Shown here piece after piece: positions 19,684 to 60,907 of a DNA stretch of 64,000 bases. Within the stretch, counting starts at the first letter, position 1; each line of letters opens with the position of its first letter. Made by a program: the position numbers and the translations under genes. Source of the stretch: Giardia intestinalis (Eukaryota). The notes below the pieces were generated by a model. It saw nothing but the letters and a program-made list of their open reading frames with translations, made no database searches and was not told the DNA's origin. The stretch lies in NCBI GenBank assembly GCA_000002435.2, contig CM018792.1, one strand, 5' to 3'.

Positions 19684-21615
19684 CTATCCCTTGAGCTTGA
19701 GGCCTTTGAAAACTATCTGGCCAATCTCCTTATAGATTGCACCGTCACCGCTTATCCTACGCATCAGGATTCCAAGTTGAGGCGAAATTGCACTGCCAAT
19801 CCTGTAAATATCAATACTAAACTGAACGTTCATGCGTTCGCACTTGAATGACCCTTCACGTTCTGAGTCTGCTTTAATTCTAAGCTCCTTAAAGACCTGT
19901 TTGAGCCTGACAACGAGATCTTCATACTGGACAGTAGTAACTACACCGTTCTCCTTTGTAATGTCGTCTTTGCATATGCGTAGCCCACCGTCGTCGTACT
20001 CCACCGTCATCTCTGGGGCCTCGCTGGAGGTTTTGACTGTCGGGGTATCCACAAGCTTTTCTGTCTTATGGTTACGGGTCGTGACAGCACCACCACCTGC
20101 AACAGGGCCTGCAGGGAGGTTGAGACCGAGACCTAGTCCGGGTATCTTGGCTTGGCCGACAGGTATGACTGGGACGGTCGCAGCCAGCTCTGCGGTTTCG
20201 CGCTTGAGCTCCACATCCTTCTCATTGATCTTCATCGTGACTTTCTCTTGACTACCCCTATCCGAGGCGGGGTCCTGTGCAACAGCGTCCTTTGTGCTGG
20301 CATCGGAAGTATTAGAGTGCAAGTGCTTCCCTACCTTGTCGCCAGAAACCTCGAGCTTGAGCTTTCCAATGGTAACCATGGTATTGTTCTCGGCATGCAA
20401 GATGTTGTTCTCAGAATCTATCTCTATTCCTATCTCCTCACAGATCTTCTTCTTCACTTCCAAGTTATCAAAGTCTGCCTTTTCGTAGCCATTTATTCCT
20501 ATGATGGCAGCCATAGACATCTTCGGGTTGCTTTTCTTGGTAGCCTCTGCCTTCTCAGCCAAGAGTGTGTAGGTGGCGGTCGATGCGTTGTGCTTTCCAA
20601 GGAATAGCCCACGGATGCACTCCACGGCATCCAGATTCATCCTGTGCATCTGCAGCAGGATCCCAAAATTCAAGTCGGAGGATATCTCTGGCAGCTCGGT
20701 CAGAATGGGCTCACTTCGACCGTCATGATTGAGAGCCCAGTTCTTCTGAATCCATGGATAAGTAATTAACTCTTCAATGGTTACGCGATCGTCCGGGTTG
20801 ACAGTGAGAAGAGCCTTCAGCACGTCCTTGGCTCCCTGGCTAAGATAACTTGGCGTGGAAAACTCTCCTGACAAGATCTTGATATACAAGCTCTGGGTTG
20901 TGCTGCCCTCAAACGGCAGGCAGCCACAGAGCATCGCATAGAGAATTATACCAGTGCTCCAGAGATCTGCGGAGGGGCCACTATACAGCTTGCCCTGAAT
21001 CATCTCAGGGGGAGCGTAAGCAGGAGAGCCGCAGCAAGTCTTCATAAAGGTGTCATGAAATATGTTCGACAGGCCGAAATCGATAATCTTAATGTCGTTA
21101 TTCGCAGTAAGAAGTAGGTTTTCGGGCTTAAGATCGCGGTGAACAATGCGCCTGGAGTGGAGAAAATGTAGTCCGTTCAGAAGCTGGCAAAGGAAACGGC
21201 AGGCCTCCTTCTCGGACAGGCGGCCCTTTGCTACGATATAATCGAAAAGCTCTCCGTTGTTCATGTATTCCTGGACGATATACACATGCCTGGGGGTGTC
21301 GACGATCTCATAAAGCTTGATTACGTTGGGGTGGTTAAGAAGTTTCAGAATTTGGATTTCACGCGTGATGCGCTCTATGTCGGCGGCCTCTGTTATCTTC
21401 GACTTTTCGATTATCTTGAGAGCAATACGCTCGTTAGTCAGTACGTGAGTCCCTAGACGCACCTTTGAGAATGACCCTTCGCCTATCGTCTTGCCAATTA
21501 TATAGTTCCCCACCCGCTTGACACGGATCTTCTTTGTGTCCTGATCTTCCCTGGAGGCATCTGGAGGGCAGGCATCGTCGACGGCCCTATCGGCGACCTT
21601 GTCGGTCTTCGGCAT
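19684..21615 (-). CDS. CAMK-like (AMPK/MARK-related) Ser/Thr protein kinase with KA1-like C-terminus
   Basis: Gly-loop GEGSFSKV, catalytic HRDLKPENLLL, DFGLS, APE. The track ORF start at 21744 is GTG and runs into the tRNA. The real ATG is at 21615 (MPKTDKV..., context ttttaaaATG). Confidence 0.85.
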   Translation of the reverse strand: MPKTDKVADRAVDDACPPDASREDQDTKKIRVKRVGNYIIGKTIGEGSFSKVRLGTHVLTNERIALKIIEKSKITEAADIERITREIQILKLLNHPNVIKLYEIVDTPRHVYIVQEYMNNGELFDYIVAKGRLSEKEACRFLCQLLNGLHFLHSRRIVHRDLKPENLLLTANNDIKIIDFGLSNIFHDTFMKTCCGSPAYAPPEMIQGKLYSGPSADLWSTGIILYAMLCGCLPFEGSTTQSLYIKILSGEFSTPSYLSQGAKDVLKALLTVNPDDRVTIEELITYPWIQKNWALNHDGRSEPILTELPEISSDLNFGILLQMHRMNLDAVECIRGLFLGKHNASTATYTLLAEKAEATKKSNPKMSMAAIIGINGYEKADFDNLEVKKKICEEIGIEIDSENNILHAENNTMVTIGKLKLEVSGDKVGKHLHSNTSDASTKDAVAQDPASDRGSQEKVTMKINEKDVELKRETAELAATVPVIPVGQAKIPGLGLGLNLPAGPVAGGGAVTTRNHKTEKLVDTPTVKTSSEAPEMTVEYDDGGLRICKDDITKENGVVTTVQYEDLVVRLKQVFKELRIKADSEREGSFKCERMNVQFSIDIYRIGSAISPQLGILMRRISGDGAIYKEIGQIVFKGLKLKG

Positions 21616-21714
21616 TTTAAAATTATTTTTGCAGCCGGATTCCGGGGTCGGCACAGACCCTACCCCTCCCCTGCTACATGCGTCTCCTGCGCAGGGGGAC
21701 CCAAGGAAGAAGTG

Positions 21715-21786
21715 AGCCCACACCGGGACTCGAACCCAGATCACTAGCTCCGGAGGCTAGCATGCTTTCCATTGCACTATGCGAGC
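21715..21786 (-). tRNA. tRNA-Arg (anticodon CCG)
   Basis: Hand-folded cloverleaf on the minus strand. Acceptor GCTCGCA/TGTGGGC with two G-U pairs. D-arm GTGC-AATGGAAA-GCAT. Anticodon arm CTAGC-CTCCGGA-GCTAG with U33 and CCG at positions 34-36. 4-nt variable loop. T-arm CTGGG-TTCGAGT-CCCGG. Coordinates accurate to about +/-2 nt. Confidence 0.6.
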
Positions 21787-47089: not shown

Positions 47090-50000
47090 ATGGACACGAT
47101 CACGCTCATCGCAGGCTTTCTACGTCAGCATGGAGAAAACGAGCTGGCTGAGAATGTGGAGAACTGCGAGTCTCTGCGCCGAGAAACTCGAATCACAACG
47201 GACCTGGAGTTTCTCCTGAACATTTCTCGTGGGTGTGTGACTGTGGAGACCCTGGCCAATCGGTCGGCGATGATCAAAGAGCACAACATGGCTTCAACCA
47301 TCGATAAGTTTGTTATCCACCCCGTTTTCTTTGGTCGGAGAAGGGCCCTGGAGAACGAATTCCTCCTGGAGATGTTCCGGGACATAGACACTAAAGTAGA
47401 TTACCTGGGCCTTGTGCCCGTGACCTCTAAGCGCTACCGCATGTCCGTCTGCCATAAGCAGCCCTATCAACACCTTTATCTCAAGCGTATATTCCCCGCC
47501 GACCAGAAGCTCAAAGGCCTTGCGCCCGATTCTCCACCGGCCATGGGCTATGCGCGTCTGTCGAATCCATATATGGACTACTACAAGGGCGAGACGGGCT
47601 TTGCCAGGCAGATAATCCTTGGGCACAAGATTGAGAAAATACAGAGTCGTGACTTTGAGCCCCACAATATCCCGGAGAAGAAGGGGCTCGGGCTAGCCAC
47701 ACGTGGAACCATTGCAGCAGCAGAGGCCGCCGATCCGTATCCCAAGGTGCCAGTTCCGACAATGTCCGCCAGCGAGAAGCAGGTTTTGTCGCGAAAGATA
47801 ACCCCCCGTGCTCTCAAGGAGTTCATTGAGCTAAAGCGCCGCATCATTCGTCTGCTTACTCAGCGCGTTGCACCCGAAGCAGACGTAACGGTGAAGCTTC
47901 TAGATGTCTTGGGGTCCTTTAAGGGGCTTGTGGAGTCTGTTCCAACGGACGACGGAGTGCCCCTTTGGACATTTGATTGGGGAAGCGCCGTTTATTTCTC
48001 TGAACACAACATAGGCAGCGCTGCGTCAGATCTAAACGCGAGGTATATCAGGCCTCAGTCAAAGGCCATTTCGAAGCGTGCTGGTTCGCGCATAATCACA
48101 ATGCGCGCGCAACCCTCTGCTGAGAGCCCAGACCCCGGACCGGAACAACAGTATGTGGTGGAGCGGTCCTCTCACTATCCAAATGTCTTCTTCATGCGCA
48201 AGTCGCGTGCATATAGTCAGGCTTTCCAAGCATTGGTTCCCTCTGCTGCGCCGGTCACTCTTCTTCAGTCTGCCCTCAATGCCAGCAAGCGTATCGGGCC
48301 TCTAGAAGAAGATACTAGCGATACTACAACACTTAATAGCCTTGCGGCAATCCCAACTGCAGCTAGTAGTCTGCAAACAACGATGGGGCAACAGCTCTCA
48401 TCAACCCTTCAAGAGAGCCAGGGGATATTCGGTCTCAGCTCAACCAACCCCCTCCAAGTGCCATCTCAAGTGCAACCTAAGATGGGTGTTCTAGCCTCCA
48501 AAATCAGGAACCAGCATTCTCTTTCCGCCGAAGAATCACGAATGCAGGCCAGTACGAAAGAGAATAAGGATTCCATGAAGTTCAGAGTTGTTCAAAATGC
48601 CACCCCATCCACGACCAAAGTAGAAAGCGTCAACTATCGGGATCTGATCATGGAGCATCTGTCATCGCCCCAGGCAACCATAGAAGCCAAGCTTCAGAGT
48701 GCACTAACAGCAGACGAGCGGCAAAAGTTCGACTCCACCGTCCGTAGCTTTGCCGAGAAGCTCAGGGCTAAGGAACTCTCATACAGCAGTATTCTATCTA
48801 ACCTGTTTGATGGACTATCAGCGCCCTCAGGCAGCCAGGTGCAGGGATCTGGGCGGCCTGGTTCTAATTATGGCCAATCGACGTCATCTCTTCCGACAGG
48901 AATTGAGCAGTTTTCATCACGTGGAGATTCCGACACGAGGACGGACCCATCCGATCACGACTTCGACTCGGACATGGCTCTTTCTGGCAATGAGGAGTAT
49001 GAGGATATAAACCTGGGAGATGAGGACCAAGCGCAGTTTGCCGCATCAGCTGGACAGGTTTCGATAGGAAACAGTGTCTCCATGGACTCCATGATTAGGA
49101 CTACGAATGAGTTCATTAAGGCAACAAGTGCATCTGGACTGAGCGAGCAGATTGAAAGTAGTGCCCAGTCTCTTCAATCCACTGGGTCACTCCACCGCAG
49201 TGATGTCCATAGTAGCAGTGTGGGTGCTCTAGGGCATGTCGGTGCCCATCATATCCGACCGCAGAGTAGTAAAGCTGTTAGCTCTATTAGCAGCGCAATG
49301 AACATGGCGACGAGCCTCTACAGTCAGACGCAGCTGTCGACCGGAGCACCCACACAGACGGCTTCTAAAAATGGATCCTCTGATGCCCCTGCGGTTGTCT
49401 ACACCCCTGTTCCGCCGATGGCAGATGACATCACAAAGAGTTGCCTCCGCCTCGAGATTTCTGTCACATCCATGGATGTTGCAGAGGCTGGTGGCACGGC
49501 GATGTCAGGCAAGGATGAGAAGGTCTTTCAGTCGTCTGTCCCGCTTCTCCCTGTGACAGCGTACTGTGATATCAACGCGGTAATAGACACAGCAGTCAGC
49601 GGATTGGATGCTTCTGATGCAAAGAACTCTGCTAAAGACAAGTACAAGACAATTCTCCAGGTAATCCGAGGCCAATTGGACCAGACGTCGCTAATGAACA
49701 CAACTGCCTGCTCCAAGCTACCAATCTACTATAACCCGCTGCACACCGGTGCCATTGAGGTTACGACTCCCGATGACGCTGATGTTCCGTTCATAGAGGG
49801 AGAGACAATCCTAAACAGATACAAGCTTCTAAAGATGGTTGGCTCGGCAACGTTCAGTAACGTCTTTAGTTGTCTGGACCTTAAAGATAATGTCACATAC
49901 TGTTTGAAGATCATTAAACAAGAGAAGGAGTTCTTTGATCAGGCTATAGATGAGGTCCATCTGCTTGAGCTCCTCAAAGACATAGACCCCAACAATAACA

Positions 50001-50794
50001 TCAACATCATAAAAATCCATGACTATTTCTATTTCCGCGAGCATCTCCTTCTCAAGTTCACACTCTTGGGAGAGGACCTGTACACTCACTTTAACAGGCG
50101 AGAAAAGAAGGGGCAGCCCAACGACTACACAATCCCCGTTATTCGGGATATGGCGCGTCAAGTGCTGAAGGCTCTGGATTATATTCATAGGCTTGGAATC
50201 ACTCATTTAGATCTCAAACCGGAGAACTTGCTCCATGGCGACAAGAACTTTATCGGAGGGGTCAATGAGCCGTCTGTCACCCTGGTTGACTTTGGAAGCT
50301 CCTCATTTATCTTCGACAAGATGCACAGCTACATCCAAAGCCGCAGCTACCGTGCGCCAGAAGTTATTCTAGCAACGCCCTACGACTCTCGGGCGGACAT
50401 CTGGTCGTTTGGGTGCGTGGTTTGCGAGCTACTCACGGGCCGTGTACTCTTCCCCAACTATTCGGTGGCGACAATCCTGAGCCGCATCTGCTCCTTGATA
50501 GGCCCAATACCCCGGGACATGATCATGAGTGGGCGCATGGGTCAGCGTGTTCTCACGTTTGGGCTGGTGCCATATGAGCATGACGAGAAGAACAGGCAGC
50601 ACTTCTACTTCACACCACAGCAGGGTCTTTTGGAGTATTGGCTCTTTGGAGAAAGGTGCGCAAATCTCACGGATGAAGAGGTGCTCTTTTCTGACTTCTG
50701 CCGGCAGGCACTTATTGTTGACCCAATCAAGCGACCAACGGCAGCCATGCTCCTTGAGCATCCGTTCATAAAGGGAGCTGATCTTCTATTGTAA
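47090..50794 (+). CDS. DYRK-family dual-specificity kinase with a long Ser-rich N-terminal region
   Basis: C-terminal kinase domain: 'FSNVFSCLDLKDNVTYCLKIIK', DYRK-type 'FFDQAIDEVHLLELL', 'ITHLDLKPENLL', 'DFGSS', activation loop 'HSYIQSRSYRAPEVIL' (YxY). About 850 aa of low-complexity N-terminus. Confidence 0.85.
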   Translation: MDTITLIAGFLRQHGENELAENVENCESLRRETRITTDLEFLLNISRGCVTVETLANRSAMIKEHNMASTIDKFVIHPVFFGRRRALENEFLLEMFRDIDTKVDYLGLVPVTSKRYRMSVCHKQPYQHLYLKRIFPADQKLKGLAPDSPPAMGYARLSNPYMDYYKGETGFARQIILGHKIEKIQSRDFEPHNIPEKKGLGLATRGTIAAAEAADPYPKVPVPTMSASEKQVLSRKITPRALKEFIELKRRIIRLLTQRVAPEADVTVKLLDVLGSFKGLVESVPTDDGVPLWTFDWGSAVYFSEHNIGSAASDLNARYIRPQSKAISKRAGSRIITMRAQPSAESPDPGPEQQYVVERSSHYPNVFFMRKSRAYSQAFQALVPSAAPVTLLQSALNASKRIGPLEEDTSDTTTLNSLAAIPTAASSLQTTMGQQLSSTLQESQGIFGLSSTNPLQVPSQVQPKMGVLASKIRNQHSLSAEESRMQASTKENKDSMKFRVVQNATPSTTKVESVNYRDLIMEHLSSPQATIEAKLQSALTADERQKFDSTVRSFAEKLRAKELSYSSILSNLFDGLSAPSGSQVQGSGRPGSNYGQSTSSLPTGIEQFSSRGDSDTRTDPSDHDFDSDMALSGNEEYEDINLGDEDQAQFAASAGQVSIGNSVSMDSMIRTTNEFIKATSASGLSEQIESSAQSLQSTGSLHRSDVHSSSVGALGHVGAHHIRPQSSKAVSSISSAMNMATSLYSQTQLSTGAPTQTASKNGSSDAPAVVYTPVPPMADDITKSCLRLEISVTSMDVAEAGGTAMSGKDEKVFQSSVPLLPVTAYCDINAVIDTAVSGLDASDAKNSAKDKYKTILQVIRGQLDQTSLMNTTACSKLPIYYNPLHTGAIEVTTPDDADVPFIEGETILNRYKLLKMVGSATFSNVFSCLDLKDNVTYCLKIIKQEKEFFDQAIDEVHLLELLKDIDPNNNINIIKIHDYFYFREHLLLKFTLLGEDLYTHFNRREKKGQPNDYTIPVIRDMARQVLKALDYIHRLGITHLDLKPENLLHGDKNFIGGVNEPSVTLVDFGSSSFIFDKMHSYIQSRSYRAPEVILATPYDSRADIWSFGCVVCELLTGRVLFPNYSVATILSRICSLIGPIPRDMIMSGRMGQRVLTFGLVPYEHDEKNRQHFYFTPQQGLLEYWLFGERCANLTDEEVLFSDFCRQALIVDPIKRPTAAMLLEHPFIKGADLLL

Positions 50795-51036: not shown

Positions 51037-54000
51037 ATGAACCACTGTGTGGCGTGCCAGGCACCACGGCCTTCTGCACGGGATCCACGCCCGGAGCTGG
51101 GCCCAGTTGTTGGCAGCGGATATCTGGGACAGGTGCGAACTTTAACAAACTCCCCGGGGCACATCACTGAAGAAGTCCGACTGGACGTCTTGCAGGAATC
51201 GGAAAAAACGTCCATCCGTCGGATCCTCCACTTAGCTACCACACTTAGTCATCCTAACATTATTCCCATAGAGTCTATTTTTGAGACAAGCAGCGTTATT
51301 TATGCTTCAATGGAGAGACCACCATGCACCCTTGAAACGCTTATCAAGGAAGCCAAGGACTCCAAGCGTAAGATCCCATCTGACACTGTCTTGCTGGCCA
51401 TCCTCCAAATCGCTGAGGCTATTACCTATCTCCACGGTTTTGCGACTGCTAGCGGAGATACCATAAAGACCTCTAAGGTCACGTATAAAGCCCTCCAGCC
51501 GAGCAATGTATTTGTTGGATGCAATGGCTGCCGCTTTTTGATTTCCGCGATTGGTATCTGTATCGAGCATGAGCAGACTGACACGTGTTTCTATTCTGCC
51601 CCAGAAATTTTGATACACAATAGATGCTCTGCTGCATCAGTTATGTGGAGCCTTGGGGTAATAACTTATGAGCTAGCAACGGGAATTAGACCCAACTTTC
51701 GAAGAACGACAGATCCTAGGCTAGTCTTTGTGCAGGACTGGAAGCCAGATTTAATCCTGGTGAGAGACAAAGAGATCAAGAAGATTATTGAGCGCCTCCT
51801 GGTGGTGACAGAAGAACACCGAATTACTGCCCCCGAACTGGTTAACCTATTGCGATCTAATAAGCACGTGGCTAAGCTCCTAACTAGTTCCACCACTTCG
51901 CCTGACAAGGCCAGTAGTAACCAGTGTGTGCAGAATGGCCTACTGAACGAGCTTTTGACTGCTGTGCGTAGTGAAGATATCGACGCTGTTAACCGTCTAC
52001 TATCCAATTCACAAAAGCTTAGCGGGGATCAAGTGGATCTGCGAGTGATTATGTCTTGCACGGAGGTTCAGGCTGCTCACGATATAGGGGTACTACTTTT
52101 GAATGCTCTAGACCCTACTGACGAAATAGGACGCACAGCTCTGATGCGCGCAGCAGACAAGGGAGACGCAGAGATGGTGCGACTGCTGATACCATTCCAG
52201 TCCAGGAAACAAACATCCTTGGGTGAAACTCTTGCCGGATACGCTGTTCAAAATCGAACAGCCCTCATGGGAGCCGCAGTCAATGGCCATCTAGAAGCTG
52301 TACGAGCTCTTCTGGACTATGAGGGCGGGATGAAAGAAAAAGATGGCTTGACAGCCCTGATGTTAGCAACGTGCAATGGACACACTGAAGCTGCCCGGAT
52401 CCTTGTCGAGAAAGAGCATGGTATTCAGACCGAGGAAGGCTGGTCGGCCCTGATGTATGCAGCTGAAAGCAACCAAGTGGATATAGCACAATTGCTTCTT
52501 AACACTGAAAAAGCCTTGCAGAACTCCAATGGGTGGACGGCTCTTATGCGAGCTGCAGAAAAGGGATACAAAAAGCTTATCAGGCTTCTCTTACAGCTCG
52601 AGGCGAAAATCCATGATAAGCATGGCCTCACCGCGCTCATGTATTCTGCATGGAGCGGTCATTCAGAAATCGTGGCCTTGCTCTTACCGTATGAGGGGGG
52701 AATGAGCTCTGCCGATGGCTGGACTGCTCTTATGTATGCAGCCTATAATGGTCATTCGGACGTAGTGCAGATCCTTATGGACACCGAGAAGCGGGCCGTC
52801 AACAAAGACGGACGCAGCGCCCTTATGCGGGCAGCTGAAAACGGACATACGGAAGCGGTCCGGCTTTTAGTTGGGCAGGAGAAGGGAATCCAGGACAATA
52901 ATGGGCTTTCCTCCATGATGTATGCTGTTTGGAATAATTACACAGACATAGTAGAAGTTCTCCACGATCACGAGTCCGGGCTTAAAAGCAAAGAGGGATG
53001 GACAGCGTTATTGTATGCAATCGATAAGAAGAATACAGACGCAGTACAAATACTTGCAAAATCTGAGGGCCTAATTCCAGACAATGGTAATCACACCGCT
53101 TTAGAGTATGCTCTTCAATCGGGATATTCTGACGCAATTAGAATCCTGCTGCCGATTGAACGCCCAACAGATGAGTTGGGCCGAACAGCACTGATGCGCG
53201 CTGCAGATAGAGGAGACACAGACATGGTTTCCCTCCTTATACCTTATCAAGGGAAACTGCAGACTGTCGGGGAGGAGGCGCTGGGCGGTCAAACACTATG
53301 TTATCGAACTGCGCTTATGGGAGCCGTCGCCAACGGACATACAGCTTCTGTTAAAATACTTGCAGAGCGTGAGCATGGGGTTCAGGACATTGATGGATGG
53401 ACTGCGCTCATGGTTGCTGCGTGCATCAATAATGCCGAGGCAGCGGCGATTTTGGTAGGTAAAGAAAGGTGCATACGGACGTCTTCTGGTCGAACTGCGC
53501 TGATGCTCGCTGCTCAGAATGGGAGCTATGAGGTCGCCACAATCCTCCTCGATTCAGAGAGAGCGCTAACAGATAGCAGTGCTCGGACGGCCACCATGAC
53601 TGCTGCGTGGACCAACTATCCAGAGATCGTGAATATTCTTCTGAAGTACGAGGAAGCAATGCAGGACGAGGATGGCTGGACAGCCCTGATGTGTGCTGCC
53701 GTTCAGGGGCACGTTGAGCCGTTAAAGTTGCTTCTTCCGCATGAAAAAGGAATGCAGAAGAAAGATGGATGGACAGCTCTTATGCTAGCCGCGAATAATT
53801 CTCATGCTGAAGCTACAAGGCTCCTCATGACCTGCCCAGAGGAGCTGCAAGCCAGCGAGAGCTGGACCGAGTTGATGATCGGGGCAGCCATAGGAGACTT
53901 AGGACTTGTGAATCAACACCTCGATCAGGTAGGAAGAACAGACAAAAGAGGCCGTACTGCGTTGATGATTGCTGCCGAAAACGACTGGCCCGAGGTTTTG

Positions 54001-54399
54001 GTGCCTTTGATAGATGACGAAGCAAAACACGTGGACATAGACGGATGCACTGCTCTCATGCTTGCAGGAAGAAATGGCAGCCTGGAATCTGCACGTATAC
54101 TTGCAAACATAGAACACGGGATCCAAAGTAGCAATGGCCAGACAGCCCTTATGGAGGCCGCTAAGGGCGGATACCCAGACGTTGTACAGGTTCTTGTAGA
54201 GTACGAAAAGTGCCTTCAGGATGCAGATGGAAACACGGCTCTGATGGTAGCAGTAGCAGAGGGATGCCAAGATGTTGTTGAGATACTAGCGGTCCACGAG
54301 TGGCATCTTTCAAATAACGCTGGCCAAACTGCGTTGGATTTGGCAAGAAGTTCTGGGAGAGAAGAGATGCTACCCATTCTATCTACGTATGCACAGTAG
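51037..54399 (+). CDS. NEK-like (pseudo)kinase fused to a large ankyrin-repeat array (21.1-type)
   Basis: N-terminal kinase-like domain ('LSHPNIIPIESIFE', 'ALQPSNVFVGCNG' replacing HRDLKPxN, 'APEILIH'). It is followed by more than 20 ankyrin repeats (GRTALMRAADKGDAEMVRLL...). Confidence 0.8.
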   Translation: MNHCVACQAPRPSARDPRPELGPVVGSGYLGQVRTLTNSPGHITEEVRLDVLQESEKTSIRRILHLATTLSHPNIIPIESIFETSSVIYASMERPPCTLETLIKEAKDSKRKIPSDTVLLAILQIAEAITYLHGFATASGDTIKTSKVTYKALQPSNVFVGCNGCRFLISAIGICIEHEQTDTCFYSAPEILIHNRCSAASVMWSLGVITYELATGIRPNFRRTTDPRLVFVQDWKPDLILVRDKEIKKIIERLLVVTEEHRITAPELVNLLRSNKHVAKLLTSSTTSPDKASSNQCVQNGLLNELLTAVRSEDIDAVNRLLSNSQKLSGDQVDLRVIMSCTEVQAAHDIGVLLLNALDPTDEIGRTALMRAADKGDAEMVRLLIPFQSRKQTSLGETLAGYAVQNRTALMGAAVNGHLEAVRALLDYEGGMKEKDGLTALMLATCNGHTEAARILVEKEHGIQTEEGWSALMYAAESNQVDIAQLLLNTEKALQNSNGWTALMRAAEKGYKKLIRLLLQLEAKIHDKHGLTALMYSAWSGHSEIVALLLPYEGGMSSADGWTALMYAAYNGHSDVVQILMDTEKRAVNKDGRSALMRAAENGHTEAVRLLVGQEKGIQDNNGLSSMMYAVWNNYTDIVEVLHDHESGLKSKEGWTALLYAIDKKNTDAVQILAKSEGLIPDNGNHTALEYALQSGYSDAIRILLPIERPTDELGRTALMRAADRGDTDMVSLLIPYQGKLQTVGEEALGGQTLCYRTALMGAVANGHTASVKILAEREHGVQDIDGWTALMVAACINNAEAAAILVGKERCIRTSSGRTALMLAAQNGSYEVATILLDSERALTDSSARTATMTAAWTNYPEIVNILLKYEEAMQDEDGWTALMCAAVQGHVEPLKLLLPHEKGMQKKDGWTALMLAANNSHAEATRLLMTCPEELQASESWTELMIGAAIGDLGLVNQHLDQVGRTDKRGRTALMIAAENDWPEVLVPLIDDEAKHVDIDGCTALMLAGRNGSLESARILANIEHGIQSSNGQTALMEAAKGGYPDVVQVLVEYEKCLQDADGNTALMVAVAEGCQDVVEILAVHEWHLSNNAGQTALDLARSSGREEMLPILSTYAQ

Positions 54400-57300
54400 C
54401 TGTTTCGCTTTAGCTTTTGACCTTTACTCTACTTCGAGGAGAGCCATCTCACTCTCAGAGAAATCAAACTCGTTATCCGCATTGTCCTTTGAATGGCTCT
54501 CTCGATGCAGTGCTACATGATTTCGACGGCTAGCTGGTACTCCTTTGGCTCTATGCTGCTCTCATACCCTCTTCTAGAATCGCTCAGATCTACCCGCGTT
54601 GCAGATGGAAACAGACAGGGGAACCGTATCTTATCGCTTATGAATAGACTCGCCAGCGTCGAGACCACGTCCTTGTTTGTCTGTCGGTTATCCTTCGTCG
54701 TATTGGAGTACGTATTAACGAGGACGCTGCCCGAGTAAATTCCCTCGTGCAAGCTATCACCGCACTGGGCTGGCAAACCTCTCACTCACTCACTCACCAG
54801 TCGAGATCCAGATCTAGAATTTGAGATCGAATGCCCTCGAATTCTGGTGGGAGAAGGCCTTATGTTCCCTCTCCCTTGAAAGCCGGTGCTGTTCCTCGCA
54901 GTGCTTTCTGAGGGTTCCTCCCTTCCCTTGGCAATCTACTGTCTGACGCCTAGGTGGGCACCTGCTGTCTCGGGCTTTGTATCATCTGCGGCGATCTGGC
55001 CTCCACGTGGCCCTGGTGTTCCGTGACGAAGATCGCGCCCCACGACCCCGGGTATCCACCCCGTTCCTCGGGGTGCCTCTTCGTCTCCTCATGGAGGGCA
55101 CTATCTGTTCCATTATCAAGGGTGCGCTCCCCATGCACCTCTATCTCGGAGTTGTAGTACGCGTTCGTGGATGCCGATGGAGTACTCCCATGCGTTGTGT
55201 CGGGGGAGAGGCCCACCCCTCTGCTCATGGATCGCAGTGCGCTCTTGCAGGTGCTCCGTCACCCAGCACGAGATCATGTCGACGCTCACCCTGTGCAGTG
55301 TGTCTGGCTCAGTGACGTGTGGGCTCCATCCATCCTCGCATCACATGGTGTGCTTGGGGTGATGCTTCGGTCTGTCGAGGCGTCATCCAAAGCACCAGGA
55401 GCGATCAGAACCGGTTCGCCGTTAGGCCGTCTCGCTCTACACCGGCACCCATCTACTCGGGGGTGTCAGGCACTGCCAGCTGCTGTGGCAGACACCCGGC
55501 AGGTGGCCCAGACCACCGCTCTTCGGTGCGGGCAGGATCAGTCCGCCTCTGTCAGCCAAGCACCCCAAGTCCTATTTCTTGTCGAGGGATTCACATGGGT
55601 CACGTGTGGGTCCGTCTCAAGCAGCACGGCGAGTGATTAGTGCCATCACTGGCTTCAGGTTCTCTGCTGCCTTGAGGGGTCCTTCGAGACCAGCCAGGAA
55701 GAAGGCCTCCTGCTCCTCTGTGCTCCTACACCCGGTGGTGACCGTCGAGCCAGTCGCTTCGCCAGGTCTGTCGTCACTATGGAAGCTGAGTGTGTCGTCG
55801 GCAAGGCACTGAGCGGGGTATCTCCTCAGCTCCTGGCGAGCAGGTTCTGTACCACGCAGCACAGAAGCATGCTCAGGGCCCTGAGGGACCGAGTCCAGAT
55901 ACCTCGCGTGTCGCAGCCAGGGGAAGGCCTCGACGCAGCTCCTCGGGACGGGGCACACTCGCCTGGCAGAGGCCGTCTACTGTTGGAATGTTCGCTATGT
56001 CGAGCAACACTGTTGTGCCCATCAGCCTACGTCTCCCTGTACTATGCGAACGCTACCATGTGCAGTCGGTGGAACGCAGTCTGCTCTGTCTCGGGGAAGG
56101 CTAGTGTCTGGGTCTCCAGGCGGCTCAGGATTGTCTTGTGGAGCGCATCATGATCGTCCCCTGATCGTGGTTGTCCTGTCTCGTTCTTGGGAAGAGGGCA
56201 GAACAAGAGTTCTTCTCCCGCCGAAGTCGCTTGACACTCACTTTCGAACTCTGGGTTTTGATCTTGGCCAATGCATGGATGAGAGAGACCCGCTTGCCCA
56301 GGGTGGCGGTGGTTCGCATGAGAGACCACTCAGATAGCAGGCGACAGTCCCGCCCCAGTGAAACGGAGAGTAAATCTTTCGATATATCAGCTCTGCCACC
56401 TGCTCTGCCCCGCAGTTCTGTCAGACCAGACGTCTTGCTTCGGCGTTGACTCATGTGGGCAGCCTTCATATCCGTAATAAGGTGACAGAATGCCAGCCGG
56501 CTGCTGTGGCGAGAGACCTCCCGTGGTCCGCTGACGTTTTAGACCTCAATGAGAAATGGATAACTCCGCGGCATGCCTCCCCTCCGGACTGGACTGGGTG
56601 CCCAGGACCCTTTCTAGAGTCCTCTGCATCACGGAGCTGTACTAAATAAGCAAAACCCTATGCTGTCCAGTACGGGCGCTTCTAAGATGCGTAAATAACT
56701 GTGTGGCTGCAGCGACGCGTCTCCATCCACAGGCGTCGGCAAGCCAGAGGGCACGTCGGCAGACAAGGTATCCCGAGCGAAGTAAGCCCCAGATTTGGTC
56801 ATATAGTGTGGCTCCCACAATGGCTACGGAGGTCTGGGGACCAGTGCTCTACGACGATATGAGCGCGGGAGGTGATCCCAAGATATGCCGACCAAGGATT
56901 TCGATATAGCTCCTGCCGCAGGGGATAATAGAACAGTGCAGCGAAGAACAGGTAACCCAAGTATCAAGAGGTACACCTATAATGGCAACCAAGAAAAGTG
57001 CTATACATAGTTAGTGATCAATACCCTTAGACAGGAAGCGGCAGATTATATGGCAGAAGAGGAGCGTTATCACTGTCGGCCAATCAAGCATTCTAAGACA
57101 TCGAAGCTGTGACGATGCATCTACCAGTGAGCTCCATCGTGCATTCTGAATGGCACGTTGTCCAACTAAGCTAGGGAAGTTCAGGAGATGGCTACGTCCC
57201 TCCGTCATCGTATGTGCCCCTTGTGAACACATGTTTGACCCAGCATCCTCTGGTTCCTAAAGTGAATGCAGATGTAAGTGAGACTGGGCAAGTGTTGAGG

Positions 57301-60300
57301 CACGCCGGCTACGAGTAGCCTCTAGTGTTGGCTAGCCACACCTGGGAGCATATCTGTCTAGGAGAGCTCTATGTAGGGCGAAGAAGATCATTCTTCGCTG
57401 GTTGGTCGTGACTTGGAGCTCAGAACAGACAGGGAACTGAGGTGGTGACCGGGTTATTGCTCTGCATCGTCTGTGCAGCCATAGCCAGGTCAGCCAGAAG
57501 GATGCCTCAATATGCACGTGATTAGCCTGTGTCTGGATACTAAAAAACTTGAGGCAGCCGTTGCACCCGCCGCCCTCAGGACAGGGCTTCTGCACGCATG
57601 GCCAGCTGCCCTTGTCAGTTCGGTCTACTGGTCCAATAGTCTGAGGACCCTCTACGCCGCTCTCTGGCATGCGATGTATCGCAACTGCTCATGGGAGTAA
57701 GCAGTATGAAAAGGCAATTGCATGTGCAGGCAGCGTGCTATGCTCGTTTCAGGGGACCGATGTGTCCAACTACAGAGCGCTGCACCGAGCAACACGCCCC
57801 ACTGCCCTGCGCCGGTGGCTGCCTCCACCACTGCACTTGCTACAATGGAGCTGTACCGGCCCAACAGATTAAGCAGGCACTGCATCGACCCCTCTGACGT
57901 TGCATGCCGCATGACGTCCAATGGTAGAGCGGACACCGTACTGCCTGAGCTATCCGTTATCGGTGAAGAATGGCACCAGAGACGCTTCTACGTATCCACA
58001 CAGTCATTATGCCTGCTTCTCCATCAGCTGTAGCGATAACTATATACCCGGAAGGTCCTGCAGAGCGCTCCATTGCCTTTCAAGATGAGACGTCTGCACC
58101 TAAAGCTAAAAACAGAAATCCGTGCACCAAGTGTCACAAGCCTAGTACGCTGACCGGCCTAGATCACAATGCACCCGCCAAAGGCCTGTGCACATGTTTG
58201 GATGCTCACCGCTAGTGGCAGACGGGCCTGCGAGAAAGCTCGTCTCTGGCCGCGCCCACCCCATAACACCTAGTCCCTGGCGACATGCTTCGGTGAGGGA
58301 GAATGCTAGGTAGACGTGCAGAGGGCCACCTGTAGACGGCCATTTCTGGAGGACCGATTCGCATGGAGAGCGTAGGGGTGACCAGCAGATCAGTGAGGTG
58401 CGACTGGGACTGGAGAGGCTGGCTGCCGGTCTGGATTGCAGCGGGGGCACCTGTGTGCCTCTCTGGCCCGCGAGTGTGGAAGGGTCTATCTACCGACAGG
58501 CCGAAGACCGCATTTTGATTTTATGCATTTACAGCAGCACATTTATTGAGGGCTGTTCTATCGAGAGGCGAGGACGTTCGCTTTCCCCGTATACGGGCGG
58601 GGATCGATTGGATTGTAGAGGTATACTGTGCAGGCCAGTATCAGTCGACACGGCCAGATCTGCAGTGCTACGCGGATGGCTACCTCCATCTTCGACCAAA
58701 GGGTTGGTATATGCATTGCGTAGGTTGGATTACGCATCACCCAGGGTAGCATGGCTCGCCCTTGTTCTCTACTTGCCTGCCTCGTGCAACCACTGCTGAT
58801 GGCCTTTCCAGGTCAGCATGCGGATGCCTCTACGGTCCCGTAAAGGAATGCATCGTGCAGGCGGCCACCACAGGCCGTCCCGTCTACCAAGGAACAGGGT
58901 CAATCGGTTACTGCATGGGGGTCCTCTGTGCGCCTTGCATAATCCATCAGGTCTTGTGCTCCTCACCACTCCCTCGCAAGCCCCGTCTGGCTCTCCCCGC
59001 CGCTGGAGTCCACGCGCATATCGTTACTGCCAAGCACTCTGGCCCCAATAGGCCACCTAGAGCGTCGGGTTCTTTGCCCTACGCAGTGAGTGTGCTTGAC
59101 ATAGGAGATGCGCAATCAACGGCAGCCTTCCCGGCTTCTGGCCTGGGTAATGCTATTGTTGCTTCTCATCCAATCGGCTGGCACGAGGACCCAGCTCATG
59201 GCCAGTAAGCCGAGAAGGGTCGTTCCAGGATGCCTTCAAGCACAGCAGTACCTCGCTGGCGGGTAGCTAACAGTGACCGTGGGGCGTACCTCCGCCAAGC
59301 CACGGCCTCCTGGGGCATGAAGTGGGACCCTGCCATCCTGCGGCCCTGCTGATTCCCCGGACAGCAGGGATCGGAGCAGCCCAGCTAGCGCCTCTGGGTC
59401 TCCATCTGTCCTCGTTGTCTGAGGTGTGCTTAGCTCCAGAGACTCAGAAGGGCGCTGTACTGTGATCGGGCCTGCATGCCTCAGCCAGGCAGAGCTACCC
59501 TCTTGGAGGTCGCATTGAGGTAGCCACACATCCCGGGACCTGTGGGGAACACCGCAGCCCAATGGAACCCTTACCTGTCGAATGCAGGCCGTAATTGCAG
59601 CCCCACCGGTGCAGACTTTCTTAGAATAACCGGTCGACTGTAGGGTCCGCCCACTCAGTCCAGATGAGCGACATCACTCTCATCGATGGGCTACATTGCG
59701 CACCGAATGAGCCCTACAGGCGGGTAGGGATCGTCCAGCCCGCAGCAATGAGCATTGGCAGATGTCCTTCACAGCAGCCGCTTTCCCATTGGGATTCGCC
59801 AGCCACTGAGGCCCAGGCCGGCCTCCTGCAGGATCATTGGCAGGATCGTGCCCGATGCATGTCTGCGGCACTCCCCTCAAGGTGCGTGCTGCTGGACCTT
59901 CGCTTCCCACACTGGCCTGCGAACATCGAGCCCTTCTGGCGGGGCCAGACGGAGATCGCAAGGATATGGCGTCTTCGGAGACTATCTGGCCTCTGAGCCA
60001 CACACCGGAGCCCACTTCTCGCAGCGGCATCACAGAGAGGTGTATAGAGCCATACCACACCCTCTACCAGGTGACATGATGCACGAATCAAGGGTAGGAC
60101 GCTCGCACCAGTTGGCCCGAAGGCAGCGATTAGATGTTATTCGACTCCCTCATCAGCGGATGGGCGCCCAGCTACCCTGGTACCCACACGAGGCCACGCT
60201 GATCATTGCCCTGGTCACTGGCTGCCACACCAGCGCAGTCTCCCTGGATCTCGTCCCTCATGAAGGCAGCCTGACACAGAGAGCCCTTTGTCACTCACAC

Positions 60301-60907
60301 CAACAGGCCAAGGTACCGCGGGCCCGGGTGTTTCCGATGATAGAGCGGTGGCACCAGAGTGACTCAAGGAGTGGTGGGGTCCTCTCCATCAGCTCGGGAG
60401 ACAGCACGGTCTGGGCAGTGCTCCCCCTTGACTAGGCACGGGAGGGCCGACCCGTCTCTGAGTCCTACTTAGCACTCTGTCATGCAGTGAAGAACCTTAG
60501 TGGTACTTGGTACGAGAGATCAGGGCTATGCACACACCAGGAGAGAGCGTCTCATGAGCCAGTCTCTGCTGATCCACATCTTCTATGGACCCGGTATCTC
60601 CTCCAGGGACTGCGAGGATCCACTTTCGGGTGCTATCTGCCGGGTAGCCGGGCCAGCAGGTGTTGTCTAGGAGGATGCCACAGGGACAGAGAGAGCACTG
60701 GCAGACGGAGGTCCACAAGGGGTCGATCCGCGCAGGGAAGGCACAAGGCCCAGCTCTCTGAGGATGTAGAGACACCGGAAGAGGGGCCAGCAGAGAGGCT
60801 GCAAGCACGTGGGTGGTCCCGTGCCTACTCGTGGACTTTCTGTTTCCCTGCGCGGTGAGCTGAGTATCACAGGCCACACGTAGTGGATGCGTTTACTACC
60901 TAAGTAT
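54400..60907. other. ORF-poor, GC-rich 6.5-kb interval (probable decayed pseudogene or retroelement relic)
   Basis: No ORF above about 226 aa in any frame. The ORFs present are short, overlapping, on both strands, and Arg/Ser/Ala/Pro-rich, as expected from random GC-rich sequence. This contrasts with 5-250-bp spacers everywhere else in the window. Confidence 0.5.
60891..60905 (-). promoter_or_regulatory. VSP extended polyadenylation signal ACTTAGGTAGTAAAC
   Basis: Minus-strand sequence TAG-AT-ACTTAGGTAGTAAAC immediately 3' of the VSP stop codon. It matches the conserved VSP 3' motif ACTYAGRTAGTRAAY, which contains the general Giardia signal AGTRAAY. Confidence 0.75.

Follow-up and report, generated by a model that had tools for sequence, protein, structure and literature searches.

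A GC-rich, non-coding interval of about 6 kb beside a VSP gene in Giardia intestinalis WB

Within a 64-kb stretch of DNA from Giardia intestinalis WB (here called the window), an earlier note had described the interval 54400-60907 as a 6.5-kb desert of open reading frames in an otherwise gene-dense locus, visibly richer in GC, placed between two convergent genes and adjacent to a VSP gene, and the question that this locus raises is what such a length of DNA represents. The description proved to be correct in most respects. The note had rightly recognised Giardia, the neighbouring VSP gene and the lack of coding in the interval, and its wider notion of a non-coding zone associated with VSPs fits the data as well as the literature. 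Outside the interval, stop-free frames of 200 or more codons follow one another with gaps of -109 to 311 nt, no coding signal was found inside it, and its GC content is 0.572 versus 0.496 in the remaining window. The flanking genes are indeed convergent, since the left one, a NEK-kinase/ankyrin gene (Pfam scores of 72.5 bits for Pkinase and 608.9 bits for Ank_2), lies on the plus strand and the right one on the minus strand; the latter is identified as a VSP gene by its PF03302 match and its CRGKA tail. The N-terminus of this VSP lies outside the window, and Tandem Repeats Finder detected between 61842 and 64000 a repeat with a period of 120 bp (40 aa), in at least 18 copies with 99% matches. 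Only the extent of the desert had to be revised: about 6.0 kb (54910-60890) is ORF-free, while the first ~340-500 bp, from 54400 to ~54900, are conserved and fall outside it (Table 1).

Table 1. Positions of the desert, its subdivisions and its flanking features in the window.
Feature	Position	Strand	Basis or comment
Left flanking gene: NEK-type protein kinase with ankyrin repeats (Protein 21.1/NEK family), 1120 aa	51037..54399	+	Pfam
Conserved block, not part of the desert	54400..54900	+	98% A1/A2; ~85% to P15 (assemblage E) up to 54729
ATG-started 81-aa ORF	54493-54738	+	Intact in WB/DH/P15 at 81/81/83 aa
PolyA signal AGTAAAT, overlapping the stop of the 81-aa ORF	54734-54740	+	Motif location
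Core of the feature: ~6.0 kb, GC 0.58, no ORF, no repeats, fast-evolving	54910..60890	.	Composition, homology, divergence
WB segment with ~83 bp in its place in DH (A2)	55658..56255	.	blastn and junction inspection
1.19-kb WB segment versus ~9 bp in DH; no homolog found	56348..57538	.	blastn and junction inspection
Part common to WB and DH, 90.4%	57539..60668	.	Basis of the three-way substitution analysis
Longest stop-free frame, 227 codons, not a gene	59752..60432	+	Length reached by 11% of shuffles
VSP polyadenylation signal AGTAAAC	60891..60897	-	11 nt past the VSP stop, inside the extended motif ACTTAGGTAGTAAAC
Right flanking gene: VSP, C-terminus ...CRGKA, stop at 60908	60908..64000	-	PF03302, 258.6 bits

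The GC and periodicity scans that the earlier note had proposed showed raised GC and a 3-nt periodicity at noise level: the Fourier signal was 0.4-1.6 in the interval versus 4-30 in the flanking genes, and the uniform coding-like periodicity that had been named as evidence against a desert is absent. Stop codons occur in the six frames of the interval at frequencies of 0.024-0.038, versus 0.035 predicted by base composition. Codon-usage scores in the desert are close to the shuffle level, with weak peaks at 54900, at 56700-57200 (minus strand) and at 60500, for which neither homologs nor a frame kept between WB and DH were found. The mismatches between WB and DH are evenly spread over the three phases (137/129/138) and the indels are mostly non-multiples of three.

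The longest stop-free frame has no Pfam match and, in a search against 1.84 billion representatives, matched only its syntenic copy (P0137) and one bacterial protein. P0137, which is also encoded on an untyped metagenome scaffold (L010), has 81% amino-acid identity, below the nucleotide identity, and the bacterial match is spurious and repeat-inflated. No Pfam match at E<=1 was obtained in any of the six frames of the interval, and a six-frame composite of stop-free segments of at least 70 aa gave no match among 5.8 billion proteins; the latter search misses the query itself and close orthologs (it overlooked the identical 114-aa ORF from the interval that is present in UniParc, as well as the 1120-aa orthologs of the left flanking gene), so that its negative result excludes distant homologs alone. 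An exact look-up in a contig index recorded none of the desert ORFs. A hidden gene was considered and was ruled out by the lack of periodicity, the random stops, the near-shuffle codon scores, the even substitution phase and the non-triplet indels. The interval is genuinely non-coding DNA beside a VSP gene.

As for RNA genes, neither the gathering threshold nor a cut-off of E<=1 gave an Rfam match in the interval, which is also free of tRNAs; on this basis, rRNA, tRNA and known RNA families were rejected. The interval also differs from the Giardia small ncRNA class (snoRNA/snRNA), in that the ncRNA 3′ motif CCTTYNHTHAA is absent, no Rfam family matches and neither P15 nor assemblage B shows conservation. 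Fold energies have a mean z-score of ~0, with extremes of only z -2.4 to -2.9 in ~98 tests; the strongest windows selected with 15 shuffles gave z -1.6 to -2.9 once 200 shuffles were used, which is not significant. Searches of the interval for tandem, direct and inverted repeats returned short matches at chance level and no G4 motifs, and the interval resembled none of the genes in the window, the VSP next to it included. A scan for bacterial-type promoters and terminators, irrelevant to Giardia, was likewise at chance level.

The composition of the interval is characterized by the absence of A/T tracts of 8 or more, versus 3.4 per kb elsewhere, and by the absence of A runs longer than 6. This deficit is as predicted from base and dinucleotide composition. 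The lack of long A/T tracts suggests that there may be few Giardia-type promoters and, consequently, little transcription. The dinucleotide signature is homogeneous across the desert and distinct both from that of ordinary genes (distance ~100) and from that of VSP genes (100-158); AA/TT are depleted and CA/TG are in excess, leaning towards the VSP genes, and the strand skew in the interval is weak.

A synteny comparison among assemblages A, B and E, another suggestion of the earlier note, revealed that the desert is non-syntenic and that DH, P15 and B each have a different VSP beside it, in another orientation and of another identity. Orthologs of the left flanking gene, of 1120/1121 aa, are found at the P15, assemblage B and DH loci, and the A1 and A2 versions of this gene are 98.99% identical. 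The desert from ~54910 onwards was found only in A1 and A2 genomes and on scaffold L010; three independent assemblies contain DNA of the interval that is 90-92% identical, and blastn detected no similarity of the desert to the P15 or the assemblage B locus. A 27-mer common to WB and DH had no match in one metagenome DNA scan. At the P15 locus, the end of similarity is followed by a 1.9-kb spacer with a GC content of 0.46 and then by a plus-strand VSP. The assemblage B locus carries, ~430 bp beyond the conserved gene, the tail of a pseudo-VSP, beside which lies a GC-rich (0.64) ORF-free flank unrelated to the WB desert.

The desert is present in DH minus two segments of 0.6 kb and 1.2 kb, and the VSP at its end is on the plus strand, whereas scaffold L010 has the same arrangement as WB and matches 57804-61025 at 91.9%. 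The longer of the two segments lies in the least GC-rich part of the desert (56400-57399, GC 0.526), and its codon-usage score, on the minus strand, is weakly the highest. The desert has been reshaped by kilobase-scale insertions or deletions, together with exchange or inversion of the adjacent VSP.

Where WB and DH can be aligned in the desert, 404 of 3870 sites differ (10.4%), compared with 44 of 1829 fourfold-degenerate sites next door (2.4%; Fisher p ~1e-30), corresponding to a substitution rate ~4 times that of the neighbouring fourfold sites. Three-way polarisation of the desert substitutions gave 169 S>W and 149 W>S changes, with an equilibrium GC of 0.56 versus a current value of 0.59; this parsimony polarisation may err, since it is based on three sequences from a single locus with no true outgroup. 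For 17.6 kb of the flank, polarised with P15, the counts were 121 S>W and 83 W>S and the equilibrium GC was 0.39; this control is mostly coding, so that codon selection adds to its apparent AT bias. The spectrum of the desert favours W>S changes relative to the flank (binomial p = 4e-9, from three sequences of one locus and a control that is coding). The substitutions in the desert are balanced at ~56% GC, and the adjacent gene-dense DNA is drifting to ~39%.

Four other explanations of the interval have to be weighed against these data. The earlier note had put forward an array of VSP or cysteine-rich pseudogenes, decayed past recognition, in which the GC-richness would be inherited from former VSP copies. 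This would agree with the position of the interval next to a VSP, with the corresponding site in assemblage B, where a pseudo-VSP C-terminal fragment precedes DNA that is GC-rich and lacks ORFs, with the excess of pseudo-VSPs over VSPs in WB (208 vs 133; PMC7000408) and with the VSP-ward lean of the dinucleotides. We nevertheless consider it quite unlikely, given that no PF03302 match at E<=1 was found in any frame, while the assemblage B fragment, used as positive control, was detected with E = 1e-18, and that tblastn with WB, P15 and DH VSPs gave nothing in the interval. There is no enrichment of cysteine or CXXC motifs, of which the interval contains 19, versus 15.7 +/- 4.0 in shuffles and 14 in 931 nt of a real VSP. 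Furthermore, no leftover periodicity was seen, the strand skew is weak, the GC content is at substitutional equilibrium and not decaying, and the dinucleotide distance to VSP genes is not below that to ordinary genes. The second proposal of that note, a degenerate non-LTR retrotransposon relic (GilD-like) inserted beside the VSP and altered by deletions, substitutions and frameshifts, is very improbable in our judgement. Reverse-transcriptase remnants are annotated between several WB VSP pairs and retroelements occur at synteny breaks (PMC7000408, PMC3091692, bioRxiv 10.1101/2022.03.07.483299), the interval has internal deletions between isolates, and its ~6 kb are close to the GilM unit of 5474 bp (PMC7000408). 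However, the six frames contain no RVT, endonuclease or other Pfam match, the stop-free segments of 70 aa or more have no distant protein homolog, and neither tandem, internal or terminal repeats nor a poly-A tail were found. Moreover, the published relics lie between head-to-head VSP pairs and the interval lies at a VSP 3′ end.

The third proposal of that note was a long non-coding transcription unit. Such a unit, an antisense one, a source of small RNAs, or a boundary in the chromatin that helps to insulate or silence the VSP would each be a functional non-coding element, which also seems unlikely to us. Long GC-rich flanks are general among VSP genes and could reflect a function, and the absence of A/T tracts of 8 or more would fit a quiet buffer between convergent genes, but this deficit is what the composition predicts. 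In addition, the interval is not conserved beyond the A1/A2 lineage, evolves faster than neutral sites and carries kilobase-scale indels, and it has no Rfam match, no ncRNA 3′ motif and no surplus of RNA structure. None of the three identities that the note had considered received positive support. Finally, the possibility that errors of sequencing or assembly created the interval, or that frameshift errors mask an intact long gene in it, is effectively refuted and we regard it as extremely improbable: Logan short-read contigs of WB-like samples do end at window positions 54552/54504, but the region also occurs, at 90-92% identity, in DH (AHGT01000049.1) and three ENA assemblies, its 114-aa ORF is in UniParc, the dinucleotide signature is Giardia-like and not that of random sequence, and periodicity, codon bias and substitution-phase bias are all lacking.

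The explanation that we favour, and hold to be rather probable, is that the desert is a non-coding VSP-island spacer, recombination-prone and most likely functionless, whose GC content is upheld by biased gene conversion. According to this model, as read from the substitution patterns, recombination and gene conversion, allelic and/or ectopic, would be frequent in the VSP flank and would give rise to the turnover of VSPs, to the indels and to the strong divergence, and GC-biased repair of the conversion tracts would uphold the high GC. The DNA itself would most likely be functionless filler, tolerated because nothing essential is located there. The divergence could alternatively reflect a comparison of paralogous copies, or old haplotypes kept around the VSP.

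The spacer reading agrees with what has been published on VSP genes in WB, whose surroundings contain few genes and vary more between alleles (Xu et al. 2020, PMC7000408). The intergenic length at VSP genes has a median of 1280 and a mean of 2131 nt, versus 79 and 392 genome-wide, and this DNA is GC-richer (Rodriguez-Walker et al., bioRxiv 10.1101/2022.03.07.483299); the G+C-rich islands that VSP, RT and HCMP genes form on the chromosomes are located where synteny is lacking (Jerlstrom-Hultqvist et al. 2010, PMC3091692). The desert belongs to this documented class of gene-poor, GC-rich and variable VSP flanks: it adjoins a VSP, has a low coding density and raised GC, varies between isolates and is non-syntenic, with a synteny break near NEK/Protein 21.1 genes. 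It departs from the WB flanks in that its ~6.1-6.5 kb are about three times the mean VSP intergenic distance of 2.1 kb, and in that it is situated 3′ of the VSP, while publications have concentrated on regions upstream (5′) and on the DNA separating VSP pairs. Gene-poor GC-rich VSP flanks have already been published for WB, so that this one is of an ordinary kind and stands out by its size only, with no new gene, RNA or element hidden in it.

Other known arrangements are comparable in part. The 2-4 kb spacers of inverted VSP pairs (Adam et al. 2010, PMC2996952) are likewise kilobase-scale non-coding DNA at VSP ends with abrupt ends of similarity, but here the partner is a conserved kinase/ankyrin gene and the window shows no duplicated arm. 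Dead GilD copies and pseudo-RT remnants share with the desert the lack of coding capacity, the numerous indels between copies and the association with VSPs; unlike them, the desert has no reverse-transcriptase or endonuclease similarity (Pfam, E<=1, compared at the protein level) and no tandem arrangement. Regions of GC-biased gene conversion are known in yeast, birds and mammals. In such regions elsewhere, for example the GC-rich subtelomeres of Cryptosporidium canis (PMC10438818), raised GC and rate, a W>S spectrum and neighbouring surface-antigen or contingency genes are found as they are here, although the desert is chromosome-internal within the window and would have undergone its recombination in an organism whose sexual or parasexual cycle is poorly defined.

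New in the present analysis are the restriction of the desert to A1/A2 genomes and L010, its divergence of 10.4% versus 2.4% and its GC-favouring substitutions; in the VSP-flank literature that was searched, we did not find a description of the ~4-fold rate excess or of the GC-favouring balance. The value of the locus is modest, that of a clean and large case whose dynamics can be measured, which is sharply delimited from the core genome and whose neighbouring VSP has been swapped between close lineages. The same pattern at all VSP flanks would indicate recombination with biased gene conversion. We tentatively raise the possibility, doubtful as it still is, that VSP-flank deserts in general are hot zones of allelic and ectopic conversion, where GC-biased repair would build up GC and the instability would drive VSP turnover, inversion and replacement. 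If true, the "GC islands" at antigen genes would be a footprint of recombination and not the relic of decayed genes, which would explain both the GC islands of Giardia and the turnover of its VSP repertoire and would bear on genetic exchange in Giardia, whose sexuality is debated.

Also new is the conservation of the leftmost ~500 bp of the interval, containing an 81-aa ORF intact in A1, A2 and E and a polyA signal. In the frame of this ORF, the ratio of synonymous to non-synonymous codon differences is 16:15, and it is 18:15 in the antiparallel frame that has its third positions in common, compared with 4:26 to 8:25 in the remaining frames. At ~54910 the identity between WB and DH falls, marking a sharp border between the conserved core genome and the desert.

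On the evidence of its stop-codon rate, 3-nt periodicity, longest frame, GC content and dinucleotide signature, the ORF desert reported between the kinase/ankyrin gene and the VSP gene (54400-60907) is real. The longest stop-free frame in the interval has 227 codons, and 11% of shuffles contain one at least that long; the stop-codon rate per frame is 0.024-0.038, compared to the 0.035 expected from composition. The Fourier 3-nt signal is 0.4-1.6 in the interval and 4-30 in the neighbouring genes; the uniform coding-like periodicity that the earlier note had named as a possible refutation is absent. GC content is raised to 0.572 compared to 0.496 in the rest of the window. The DNA is non-random: its dinucleotide signature (CpG 0.67, TpA 0.79, AA/TT 0.72, CA/TG 1.27), strand-symmetric and homogeneous throughout the interval, exaggerates the local Giardia signature. 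Codon-usage scores of the desert under housekeeping or VSP models lie near the shuffle distribution, and the few weak peaks have neither homologs nor a frame conserved between isolates. The gaps between long stop-free frames elsewhere in the window range from -109 to 311 nt.

Features of the locus and of its syntenic counterparts (positions in the window unless a locus is named)
Feature	Location	Strand	Description
tRNA-Arg (CCG)	21714-21786	-	The window's single detected RNA gene; overlaps a long stop-free frame, 19687-21756 (-), at that frame's upstream end
DYRK kinase gene	47090-50794		Identical to XP_001704788.1 (Kinase, CMGC DYRK, strain ATCC 50803)
Kinase/ankyrin gene	51037-54399	+	NEK/Protein 21.1 family; protein kinase with ankyrin repeats
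81-aa ORF	54493-54738; DH, L006 17404-17646; P15, L003 17412-17660	+	ATG start; intact in WB, DH and P15
GLP15_2690	P15, L003 17324-17869; counterpart at 54405-54785	-	Antiparallel ORF; hypothetical protein of 181 aa, annotated in P15
Imperfect GC-rich hairpin (GACGAAGA...TCTTCGTC)	55025-55085		Close to where the hypervariable part begins
114-aa ORF	56125-56469	-	UniParc UPI0001CA72F2; spans WB/DH indel junctions
VSP gene	from 60908	-	PF03302, 258.6 bits; C-terminus CRGKA
VSP repeats	61842-64000 and past the window end		120 bp (40 aa), at least 18 copies at 99% identity
Spurious frame on VSP repeats	61490-64000	+	837 codons, strand opposite to the VSP
Spurious frame on VSP repeats	61612-63999	-	796 codons
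Assemblage B pseudo-VSP tail	L004 17758-18288	-	About 200 aa, ends CRGKA; PF03302 E = 1.3e-18
ORF-free DNA	L004 18289-20076		1.8 kb, GC 0.64; beyond the pseudo-VSP tail, unrelated to the WB desert

The window belongs to strain WB, of assemblage A1, and its syntenic loci were reached via DYRK kinase orthologs in DH (A2), two A2-like metagenome assemblies (L007, L008), P15 (assemblage E) and assemblage B (L004, L005), and a further scaffold, L010, via the representative protein match P0137. From about 54910 the A1-A2 identity drops to 83-95%, and segments of 0.6 kb and 1.19 kb of the WB desert are missing from DH. The VSP at the desert end lies on the plus strand in DH and presents a convergent tail in WB and L010, the latter with a different VSP body. 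At the same place P15 has only a 1.9-kb spacer with a GC content of 0.46, followed by a plus-strand VSP, and in assemblage B a VSP C-terminal fragment converges on the kinase/ankyrin gene from about 430 bp away. From these indels, differing VSPs and the dissimilarity of P15 and B, it follows that the desert is structurally unstable and was seen in no sequence other than the A1 and A2 genomes and L010. This untyped, metagenome-derived scaffold (ENA ERZ28584860, 1-3849) represents a third haplotype, which covers the desert's right half and is about 92% identical there to both WB and DH. Short-read Logan contigs of ~65 kb from several samples (L001, L002, L009) all end at 54504-54552, 105-153 bp past the kinase/ankyrin stop, in sequence that is not of low complexity, as would fit a region that starts nearby and is heterozygous or multi-copy.

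Between WB and DH, 404 of the 3870 aligned desert sites differ (10.4%; transitions to transversions 338:66), compared to 44 of 1829 fourfold-degenerate sites in five flanking genes (2.4%; Fisher p about 1e-30) and about 1.2% across the flanking 10 kb. The mismatches are even across the three phases, and the indels are mostly non-multiples of three. The WB, DH and L010 sequences form a star-like comparison with pairwise divergences of 7-9%, in which lineage-specific changes (S>W 169, W>S 149) give an equilibrium GC of 0.56, near the current 0.59. The P15-polarised 17.6-kb flank gives 121 S>W and 83 W>S changes, with an equilibrium of 0.39, a balance that differs from that of the desert (p = 4e-9) in an analysis of one locus and three sequences with a largely coding control. 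The high GC is thus upheld by the substitution process rather than fading from a GC-rich ancestor.

As to the identity of the desert, a hidden gene and an artefact can both effectively be ruled out. The longest ORF, searched against 1.84 billion representatives, had no match beyond its syntenic copy P0137, which L010 also encodes and whose amino-acid identity (81%) is below the nucleotide identity, and a spurious repeat-inflated bacterial protein. A large word-indexed protein search was blind to self and close orthologs: an ORF with an identical UniParc entry went unreturned, as did the 1120-aa orthologs of P15, B and DH, although other indices contain them. Its negative therefore excludes distant homologs only. 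The 114-aa ORF, whose UniParc entry presumably derives from an early WB annotation, has no Pfam match and no coding signal. The decayed VSP or cysteine-rich pseudogene array proposed in the earlier note found no support: stop-masked six-frame translations of the interval matched nothing in Pfam at E≤1, and thus no VSP, reverse transcriptase or endonuclease domain was detected by a method that works, since it recovered the assemblage B VSP fragment. Moreover, tblastn with three VSP proteins gave no match in the desert, and its 19 CXXC motifs are not an enrichment over shuffles (15.7 ± 4.0). The interval resembles nothing else in the window, the adjacent VSP included. The proposed GilD-like relic fared no better in the Pfam and repeat scans, which gave no reverse transcriptase or endonuclease domain at E≤1 and no tandem, direct or inverted repeats in excess of chance; either origin would be possible only for remains too decayed to be detected.

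A regulatory or lncRNA role, akin to the long non-coding transcription unit also put forward, is disfavoured because the desert sequence is not conserved. Rfam gave no family in the interval at the gathering threshold or at E≤1, no tRNA was found there, and the Giardia ncRNA 3′ processing motif (PMC3510501) was not found. RNA folding energies are overall indistinguishable from those of shuffles, and the z-scores of the hairpin (between -2.6 and -2.9, both strands considered) are non-significant after multiple testing.

The desert DNA is probably functionless, and the best-supported mechanism that we infer is recombination and gene conversion at a VSP flank. Frequent allelic or ectopic exchange there would produce the sharp core-genome border, the excess divergence, the indels and the swap of the neighbouring VSP, and GC-biased conversion would keep the GC content up; our literature search, of incomplete coverage, found biased gene conversion in Giardia discussed in other contexts only. 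Earlier publications on this genome report gene-poor DNA with more allelic variation around VSPs (PMC7000408), long VSP intergenic regions of higher GC content (preprint 10.1101/2022.03.07.483299) and, where synteny breaks, G+C-rich islands made up of VSP, RT and HCMP genes (PMC3091692). The interval is real and a large member of this class, which is ordinary and known from those descriptions of the Giardia WB genome; the desert rate and GC-bias measurements and a small conserved left-edge ORF are minor additions.

This ORF of 81 aa in WB and DH and 83 aa in P15, unannotated and directly downstream of the kinase/ankyrin gene, lies in the conserved block of ~500 bp that follows this gene (A1 versus A2 98%; versus P15 about 85% up to 54729). 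A canonical polyA signal, AGTAAAT, overlaps its stop; it has no Pfam match, and its exact sequence is absent from the protein collection. WB-P15 substitutions are concentrated in one codon phase, with synonymous to non-synonymous counts of 16:15 in the 81-aa frame, 18:15 in the antiparallel frame and about 4:26 in the rest. Because the antiparallel frame shares third positions with the 81-aa ORF, which strand is coding is ambiguous. The WB and DH counterparts of the antiparallel GLP15_2690 are disrupted, with no ATG and an in-frame stop, and that of WB has also lost 1 bp compared to DH and P15. GLP15_2690 is either an antisense shadow cast by the 81-aa ORF or a gene that is decaying in assemblage A.
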